NCBI RefSeq assembly: GCF_003334815.1
Contig: NZ_QOWO01000007.1
DNA from: Escherichia coli
GTDB lineage: Bacteria; Pseudomonadota; Gammaproteobacteria; Enterobacterales; Enterobacteriaceae
Strand: one strand, 5' to 3'
DNA length: 64,000 bases
Program-made: the position numbers and the translations under genes
In this document: in pieces, positions 31,765 through 31,803 of the stretch
Layout of the letters: every line of letters begins with the position of its first letter
Numbering within the stretch: position 1 is the first letter of the stretch
Notes under the pieces: model-generated
What the model was told of the DNA's origin: nothing
Seen by the model: only the letters and a program-made list of their open reading frames with translations
Databases searched by the model: none

Positions 31765-31803
31765 AACTAATTGGCGTTGCAGTACATGCAACGCCAATTA
31801 GTT
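31765..31803. terminator. perfect 17-bp-stem palindrome between convergent ydbL and feaR
   Basis: AACTAATTGGCGTTGCA-gtaca-TGCAACGCCAATTAGTT; overlaps feaR stop; no U-tract. Confidence 0.45.

Follow-up and report, generated by a model that had tools for sequence, protein, structure and literature searches.

At the point where ydbL and feaR of Escherichia coli meet tail to tail lies a perfect 18-bp palindrome whose transcripts, from either strand, are predicted to fold into a very stable hairpin lacking a U-tract. It is best filed as a lineage-specific, U-less hairpin at the ends of Rho-terminated transcripts, a known class of which it is an unproven member. We put at roughly 45% the probability that the palindrome protects such transcripts from exonucleases or makes them pause. 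Positions below refer to the window, meaning the whole 64,000-nt stretch of DNA that was analysed; adding 1,414,576 converts them to MG1655 coordinates, in which the palindrome occupies 1446340-1446380.

A palindrome between two convergent genes

The ydbH-ynbE-ydbL operon and feaR are convergent, and the palindrome sits at their junction, with 133 nt between the end of the ydbL ORF (31630) and the hairpin, and with the end of the feaR ORF (301 aa, minus strand, 31802..32707) reaching into it. The initial annotation had reported a perfect inverted repeat with a 17-bp stem here. The repeat is real and lies where it was placed, and it extends one base pair further on each side than described: a repeat search gave arms of 18 nt each, 31764-31781 and 31787-31804, that are 100% complementary. 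The feaR stop codon does fall inside the palindrome, as had been claimed; it makes up the last 3 bp of the right arm, at the outer end of the stem, which holds no sense codon. The features of the junction that we refer to are these:

31764..31781, no strand assigned: left arm of the palindrome, TAACTAATTGGCGTTGCA, from the repeat search; position 10 (31773) is G, C or A and position 18 (31781) is A or T among haplotypes
31782..31786, no strand assigned: loop or spacer GTACA, 5 nt, the same in every E. coli copy read
31787..31804, no strand assigned: right arm, TGCAACGCCAATTAGTTA; 31795, the partner of 31773, is C, G or T, and 31787-31788 is TG or CA
31802..31804, minus strand: feaR stop codon TAA, from the ORF list; NC_000913.3 annotates feaR at 1446378..1447283
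31757..31809, plus strand: extended helix in ydbL RNA, from the predicted fold, in which UCUGU at 31757-31761 pairs with GCGGA at 31805-31809
31631..31763, plus strand: ydbL 3' untranslated spacer, from the outgroup alignment; single-copy, GC about 0.33-0.41, part of an E. coli-specific insertion
31661-31737 (approximate), plus strand: second stem-loop, long and imperfect, from the fold, in which CAGGAGAAGGCGAUUGAUC pairs with GUCAAAUUGCCUUUUGCCCUG around an inner hairpin
31925 (MG1655 1446501), plus strand: peak of a Rho termination region, from PMC7815308 supplementary file 2; antisense to feaR, 121 nt past the hairpin

Chance does not account for the palindrome. No other perfect hairpin in the 64-kb window is as long, the second longest having 12 bp, and in 20 shuffles of the window the longest stems reached only 8-12 bp. 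Searched within the window at up to 3 mismatches, the arm sequence matches itself only, with 0.09 matches expected by chance. The initial annotation had proposed computing the folding energy of the RNA and searching the genome for further copies. The fold is indeed very stable (plus strand -33.8 kcal/mol, minus strand -29.6 kcal/mol, z about -7.8 on both), and the search returned a single locus per E. coli genome with no second copy. The window is K-12 sequence, and the 301-nt segment spanning the palindrome is 100% identical to BW25113. In the predicted plus-strand fold, the stem is extended by 5 pairs (2 of them G-U) across a 2-nt bulge, for 23 pairs in total; this extension is predicted for plus-strand RNA only, not for the minus strand. 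The complete 191-nt spacer folds at -59.8 kcal/mol (z -5.9), and its imperfect stem-loop (about 31661-31737) shares the E. coli-specific insertion with the palindrome.

Despite this stability, the palindrome is not an intrinsic terminator. One element of such a terminator, a stable GC-containing hairpin, is present (18-bp stem, -27 to -34 kcal/mol), and the earlier remark that this is more than a routine terminator needs seems to us a fair one. On the 3' side of the stem, the plus strand reads GCGGAAUUUACG and the minus strand AAAACAGAUAUUUG; neither has a U-tract. The immediate flanks taken for the intrinsic-terminator test (plus GCGGAAUUU, minus AAAACAGAU) fall short of about 5 or more U in 8 nt. 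A promoter and terminator scan of the ydbL-feaR spacer called no terminator and no promoter, so that both the flank sequences and the scan bear out the U-tract's absence from both strands, which had been noted at the outset. Nor is termination on the plus strand Rho-independent, as judged from published data with the Rho inhibitor bicyclomycin (PMC7815308).

A neighbouring junction illustrates the difference. Between the convergent genes feaB and tynA, at 34461-34487, AAAAAACGGCAC-CTG-GTGCCGTTTTTT forms a perfect stem of 12 bp flanked by an A-tract and a T-tract, and this hairpin is a textbook bidirectional intrinsic terminator; the ydbL/feaR junction is thus constructed differently from its neighbour. 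Elsewhere in the window, at 57662-57687, AAAAGGGAAA-GATGCA-TTTCCCTTTT has a 10-bp perfect stem and is a palindrome resembling a bidirectional terminator.

Perfect dyad symmetry over 41 bp could also matter at the level of DNA, as a palindromic operator for a dimeric protein or as a recombination or cruciform site, and the symmetric changes at pair 10 described below would preserve a dyad-symmetric binding site as well. We found nothing in favour of the factor-binding palindrome that the initial annotation had suggested: literature naming both ydbL and feaR reports no binding site, and the half-site spacing is wrong. The half-sites AATTGG/CCAATT recall GntR-family boxes (PdhR, LldR), but they stand 19 bp apart, as against about 3 bp in those boxes. 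The 18-bp arms far exceed any half-site, the position, at the tail of both genes, is remote from promoters, and the site is single-copy with no counterpart in related genera. Convergent transcription, moreover, produces positive supercoiling between genes, which disfavours cruciform extrusion. The single-stranded DNA of the palindrome folds at -21.3 kcal/mol. We give a DNA-level role a very slim chance. Among other motifs, the TGGC and TTGCA of a sigma-54 promoter are present at the wrong spacing, and SlmA, matS and dif sites gave no match.

Transcription past the hairpin

Plus-strand transcription leaving ydbL is stopped nearby in a Rho-dependent manner, according to published data for that strand. 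Adams et al. 2021 (PMC7815308) compared read coverage with and without bicyclomycin, and the region that they report at 1446501 has a Rho score of 4.03 and a significance of p = 1.3e-5. Coverage upstream and downstream of this position was 54/14 in untreated cells and 87/91 with bicyclomycin (PMC7815308). The downstream/upstream ratio calculated from these values rises from 0.26 to 1.05, about 4-fold more readthrough, on a call that uses 800-nt windows and low read counts, so that its position is approximate and bicyclomycin-induced antisense initiation is possible. A Rho region at 1446501 implies that transcripts from the ydbL strand normally run more than 100 nt antisense into the feaR 3' end. 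Since no drop in coverage is detectable once Rho is inhibited, the hairpin alone is not an effective terminator.

The C/G ratio downstream of the hairpin is modest. On the plus strand it stays at 1.1-1.4 for 150 nt and climbs to about 2.0 at 175-250 nt; the minus strand reaches about 2.0 at about 125 nt. The curated Term-seq 3' ends of PMC7815308, which cover three growth conditions, include none in 1446000-1446699, and low expression could explain this. PMC12207403 and PMC6131387, consulted for 3' ends or cleavage at the site, mention neither ydbL nor feaR.

The stem-loops that these observations bring to mind were described by Dar & Sorek 2018 (PMC6061677), who found that the steady-state 3' ends of Rho-terminated E. 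coli transcripts are precise and fall directly behind stable stem-loops. Neither a U-tract nor an upstream A-tract accompanies these stem-loops; they shield the RNA from PNPase and RNase II, and a mild enrichment of C over G follows them (PMC6061677). In the reading that we favour, transcription on the ydbL strand would likewise pass through the hairpin, and Rho would halt it about 100-200 nt further on, within feaR antisense. We infer that PNPase and RNase II would then trim the RNA 3'-to-5' as far as the base of the hairpin, which would block them and so set a stable ydbL 3' end; that the hairpin may also pause RNA polymerase, helping Rho to catch up; and that the feaR mRNA, which carries the same structure directly after its stop codon, could be served likewise. 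The element being palindromic, an identical structure is available on the feaR strand. To terminate at the feaR stop within the stem, a ribosome would need to open a large part of the 5' arm, judging by its known footprint. The 5 extra plus-strand pairs, together with the retention of the stem in genomes without a functional feaR, fit a primary role on the ydbL strand. The suggestion of the initial annotation that the palindrome is an RNA processing or stability element for ydbL and feaR therefore survives in part: the match to the class of U-less stem-loops and the Rho dependence of the plus strand speak for it, and the lack of a listed Term-seq 3' end speaks against it.

Overlapping bidirectional terminators between convergent genes were reportedly described by Ju et al. 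in 2019, and the palindrome could be an element of this collision type, at which the hairpin would pause polymerases arriving from both genes and head-on and trailing collisions would release them, with no need for a U-tract or for Rho. It lies exactly between convergent genes, forms a hairpin on both strands and is unlike an intrinsic terminator, all of which would suit such a role. Yet termination in this model is Rho-independent and driven by collisions (Wang et al., bioRxiv 10.1101/2022.10.23.513370), whereas here plus-strand readthrough goes up about 4-fold with bicyclomycin and the drop across the region disappears. Frequent transcription from both sides would also be needed, against which stand the low plus-strand read counts and the lack of detected 3' ends (PMC7815308). 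We consider this explanation improbable.

Slimmer still is the chance that the palindrome works as an RNase III site, either because the read-through helix of about 23 bp is cut and the upstream mRNA destabilised, or through double-stranded RNA formed there by sense and antisense transcripts. Such an arrangement would presumably resemble sib retroregulation of lambda int. The 18 + 5 pairs predicted for the plus-strand RNA come near two helical turns, and plus-strand transcripts do reach antisense into feaR before Rho stops them, but fewer pairs form on the minus strand, and the widespread open-top haplotypes also have a shorter helix. Neither this reading nor the DNA-level one has drawn positive evidence.

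Distribution, origin and variation of the palindrome

The palindrome is present in about 4,200 of 5,426 complete E. coli genomes, always at the ydbL-feaR junction and at one locus in each (the two places matched per record are both strands of one palindrome); the rest of the ydbL-feaR spacer is likewise single-copy. A scan of metagenome contigs with one arm as the query, position 10 left free, found at least 120 loci; among the matches listed, 22 carry the palindrome, all in E. coli flanks, and 98 are chance single-arm matches without a partner arm. In plasmid and phage collections, only chromosome-sized or chromosome-derived E. coli records matched (mislabelled chromosomal fragments). At permissive E-values, Rfam returned generic hairpin noise and nothing at the gathering threshold, the best scores being 22.9 bits for mir-5880 (threshold 97) and 20.2 bits for V_AS5 (threshold 96). 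NC_000913.3 has no feature between ydbL and feaR and no repeat_region in 1444000-1449500.

Several element families were considered and set aside. A REP/BIME repeat is rejected on copy number, one per genome against the hundreds expected, and on the absence of an annotated repeat; the sequence also does not resemble the REP consensus. A mobile element or MITE is rejected because the palindrome has a single context and no copies elsewhere, and the ends of the insertion show no convincing MITE-like terminal repeats by eye in the alignment. An integron attC site is rejected, the stem being perfect, without bulges or extrahelical bases, and the R'/R'' cores inexact. Small ORFs in the spacer amount to candidates of 21-27 aa, unsupported and none of them credible.

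The remaining complete genomes lack the palindrome and have lost the feaR side, for instance through IS1-associated deletions that reach ynbC or through replacement by another segment. At two such loci (L010, 1647-2414, and L012, 1563-2332), IS1A lies inside the ydbL 3' spacer, after window positions 31745 and 31661; a truncated ynbC follows the IS1, and the palindrome is gone together with about 25 kb of K-12-type sequence. These two IS1-associated deletions are independent events. At a third locus (L011, 1596-3095, from the cerebrospinal fluid isolate MS15236), divergence sets in after 64 nt of the ydbL spacer, and the replacement segment, whose breakpoint is common to several genomes, begins with a gene of 7.8 kb whose product is called a 'hypothetical protein' (WP_024185765.1).

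For outgroups, a genome scan anchored on FeaR returned 5 loci. A FeaR protein search was uninformative within the genus, because all Escherichia FeaR fall into a single 90% cluster, every listed member of which is E. coli; two proteins that had looked divergent (P0002 and P0006) proved to come from E. coli genomes whose feaR is truncated. In Pseudocitrobacter faecalis, P. vendiensis, a Pluralibacter MAG and a relative with 77% FeaR identity, synteny is kept and ydbL and feaR lie tail to tail, with stop codons that abut across an essentially 0-nt spacer and with no hairpin. The abutting stops are at L006 3400-3412, L007 3400-3412, L008 about 3405-3415 and L016 2404-2410. A cryptic Escherichia lineage (L005; strain SCPM-O-B-8794, which carries the label E. 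coli yet represents a species of its own in the genome collection) has a FeaR that is 97% identical, and at 3407-3479 an unrelated 73-nt ydbL-feaR spacer with a TGA stop for feaR and no palindrome. Shuffled sequence is predicted to fold at least as well as this spacer, a type that was found in none of the 5,426 complete E. coli genomes.

In the outgroup alignment, the E. coli spacer appears as an AT-rich insertion of about 175 nt that also replaced the feaR stop codon and gave ydbL one extra codon. With the spacer absent in relatives and aligning as an insertion, the hairpin is a young feature that belongs to E. coli sensu stricto alone. On the evidence of these genomes, it is not a conserved requirement of the ydbL/feaR pair.

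Within E. coli, 5 haplotypes cover 4,148 genomes:

Perfect K-12 form: 1,404 genomes
Two loop-proximal pairs opened, leaving 16 pairs and a 9-nt loop: 1,326 genomes
Pair 10 C-G, pair 18 T.T: 880 genomes
Pair 10 a G.G mismatch: 409 genomes
Pair 10 A-T, pair 18 T.T: 129 genomes

None of the five folds less stably than -20 kcal/mol on either strand, and the stem is kept throughout as at least 16 consecutive pairs or as 9+8 pairs around one mismatch. Invariance extends to 15 of the 18 pairs; pairs 17 and 18, on the loop side, are opened in some haplotypes. At pair 10 (31773/31795), both partners are tri-allelic, G/C/A and C/G/T, and complementary combinations occur as G-C, C-G and A-T. This pair is variable while the adjacent stem positions are invariant. 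The A-T haplotype was seen only in genomes with a truncated feaR pseudogene, so any constraint on pairing there would act via the ydbL strand, and the C-G haplotype is also common where a feaR remnant is fused to a paaY remnant. The pattern suggests that pairing is under constraint independently of a working feaR, a suggestion that is not statistically secure: the covariation score was matched by 42 of 500 shuffles with the 5 haplotypes and is not significant. The G.G haplotype carries left-hand SNPs of the K-12 type and right-hand SNPs of the C-G type and, judged from few sites, looks like a recombinant of the two and not like a mutational intermediate. In many genomes, no more than about the last 84 codons of feaR are left (252 nt at L003, 443-849, from strain Ecol_AZ153, and 207 nt at L018), joined in L003 to a paaY remnant. 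Such remnants imply that feaB, tynA and the paa cluster have been deleted; the palindrome and the ydbL spacer are still there.

The same genomes furnish the main rival to the exonuclease-barrier reading, one that carries real weight with us while falling on the unlikely side. It holds that the palindrome is a young and neutral by-product of the insertion of about 175 nt that separated the abutting stops, and that it persists because it is recent and harmless. It would have arrived with the insertion or arisen within it by inverted duplication or a template switch, and the symmetric changes in the arms would reflect quasipalindrome template-switch mutation, not selection. No relative bearing the spacer with one arm only, which would have revealed an origin by inverted duplication, was found among the outgroups. 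No non-E. coli relative read has the palindrome, the ancestral spacer apparently being 0 nt, and the E. coli spacer is highly polymorphic (down to 92.5% identity) as well as AT-rich and single-copy. The palindrome is itself no better conserved than its flanks, with 5 of 41 polymorphic columns against 3 of 40. Haplotypes with a mismatch or an open top are common (409, 1,326, 880 and 129 genomes), the palindrome persists where feaR is a pseudogene remnant, and no 3' end has been mapped at the hairpin by Term-seq (PMC7815308), all of which agrees with neutrality, as does the lack of significant covariation.

Independent neutral mutation would not be expected, however, to leave pair 10 tri-allelic and complementary while 15 of 18 pairs stay invariant, and efficient templated correction would make the G.G and open-top haplotypes rarer than they are. 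The polymorphisms also fall where they do least damage, next to the loop or compensated, with none in the loop and none uncompensated in the outer stem. Selected or not, a hairpin of -30 kcal/mol in a transcribed 3' region would affect exonucleolytic decay. Neutrality thus explains the absence in relatives, the low conservation and the missing 3' ends, and the polymorphism pattern less well.

At the other extreme, the structure might be actively maintained, with templated correction or selection keeping the arms complementary and with one shared 3' cap serving two convergent mRNAs, its strength on the feaR side depending on translation. Keeping the arms complementary would let pair 10 run through three Watson-Crick states in one species, and each ribosome terminating inside the stem would melt it, which is how feaR-side strength would come to depend on translation. 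Any palindrome-templated correction is probably slow, given how frequent the mismatched and open-top haplotypes are, and we regard active maintenance as a long shot. If it were true, it would tie a phospholipid-transport operon to the aromatic-amine regulator at the post-transcriptional level, in one lineage.

Relation to known terminators and 3'-end hairpins

If the palindrome does cap Rho-terminated transcripts, it would add a further example to a known class, and an unusually clean one: perfect, single-copy and with a datable origin in an insertion. Its absence from relatives and its conservation, no greater than that of the spacer flanks, argue against an important specialised role. Our understanding of ydbL or feaR is unchanged by the hairpin, and no open question hangs on it. 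What it does offer is a set of natural alleles (perfect, mismatched, open-top and three compensated states of pair 10) that amount to ready-made mutants for relating stem strength to 3'-end stability and Rho readthrough.

Among known systems, the canonical bidirectional intrinsic terminator, of which feaB/tynA is an example, likewise consists of a palindromic hairpin common to two convergent genes. There, a GC-rich stem of about 6-12 bp is flanked by an A-tract and a T-tract, whereas the ydbL/feaR hairpin has an 18-bp stem of mixed composition with a T-tract on neither side. The overlapping bidirectional terminators attributed to Ju et al. 2019 and Wang et al. are similar in joining convergent genes, in forming a hairpin on both strands and in their non-intrinsic look. 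They differ in being described as Rho-independent and collision-driven, whereas the ydbL/feaR junction is Rho-dependent on the plus strand and apparently weakly transcribed.

REP/BIME elements stabilise 3' UTRs and bring about partial Rho-dependent termination (bioRxiv 10.64898/2026.03.23.713779). Like them, the palindrome is extragenic and differs in presence between lineages, and their proposed action as decay barriers and Rho-assisted attenuators is the same kind of job that we envision here. Unlike them, it is not a repeat family, with one copy per genome and no REP annotated in NC_000913.3.

The stem-loops of Dar and Sorek (PMC6061677) provide the comparison on which our filing rests. In common with them, the ydbL/feaR hairpin is a stable 3'-untranslated stem-loop without a U-tract or an upstream A-tract, followed, in plus-strand data of low resolution (PMC7815308), by Rho-dependent readthrough; the modest excess of C over G beyond it may be a further resemblance. 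That class is defined by precise steady-state 3' ends, whereas the curated Term-seq tables list none for the ydbL/feaR hairpin. The palindrome stands apart, too, in its 18 perfect pairs, far longer than typical terminator-like stems, and in being common to two convergent genes, one of whose stop codons it contains.
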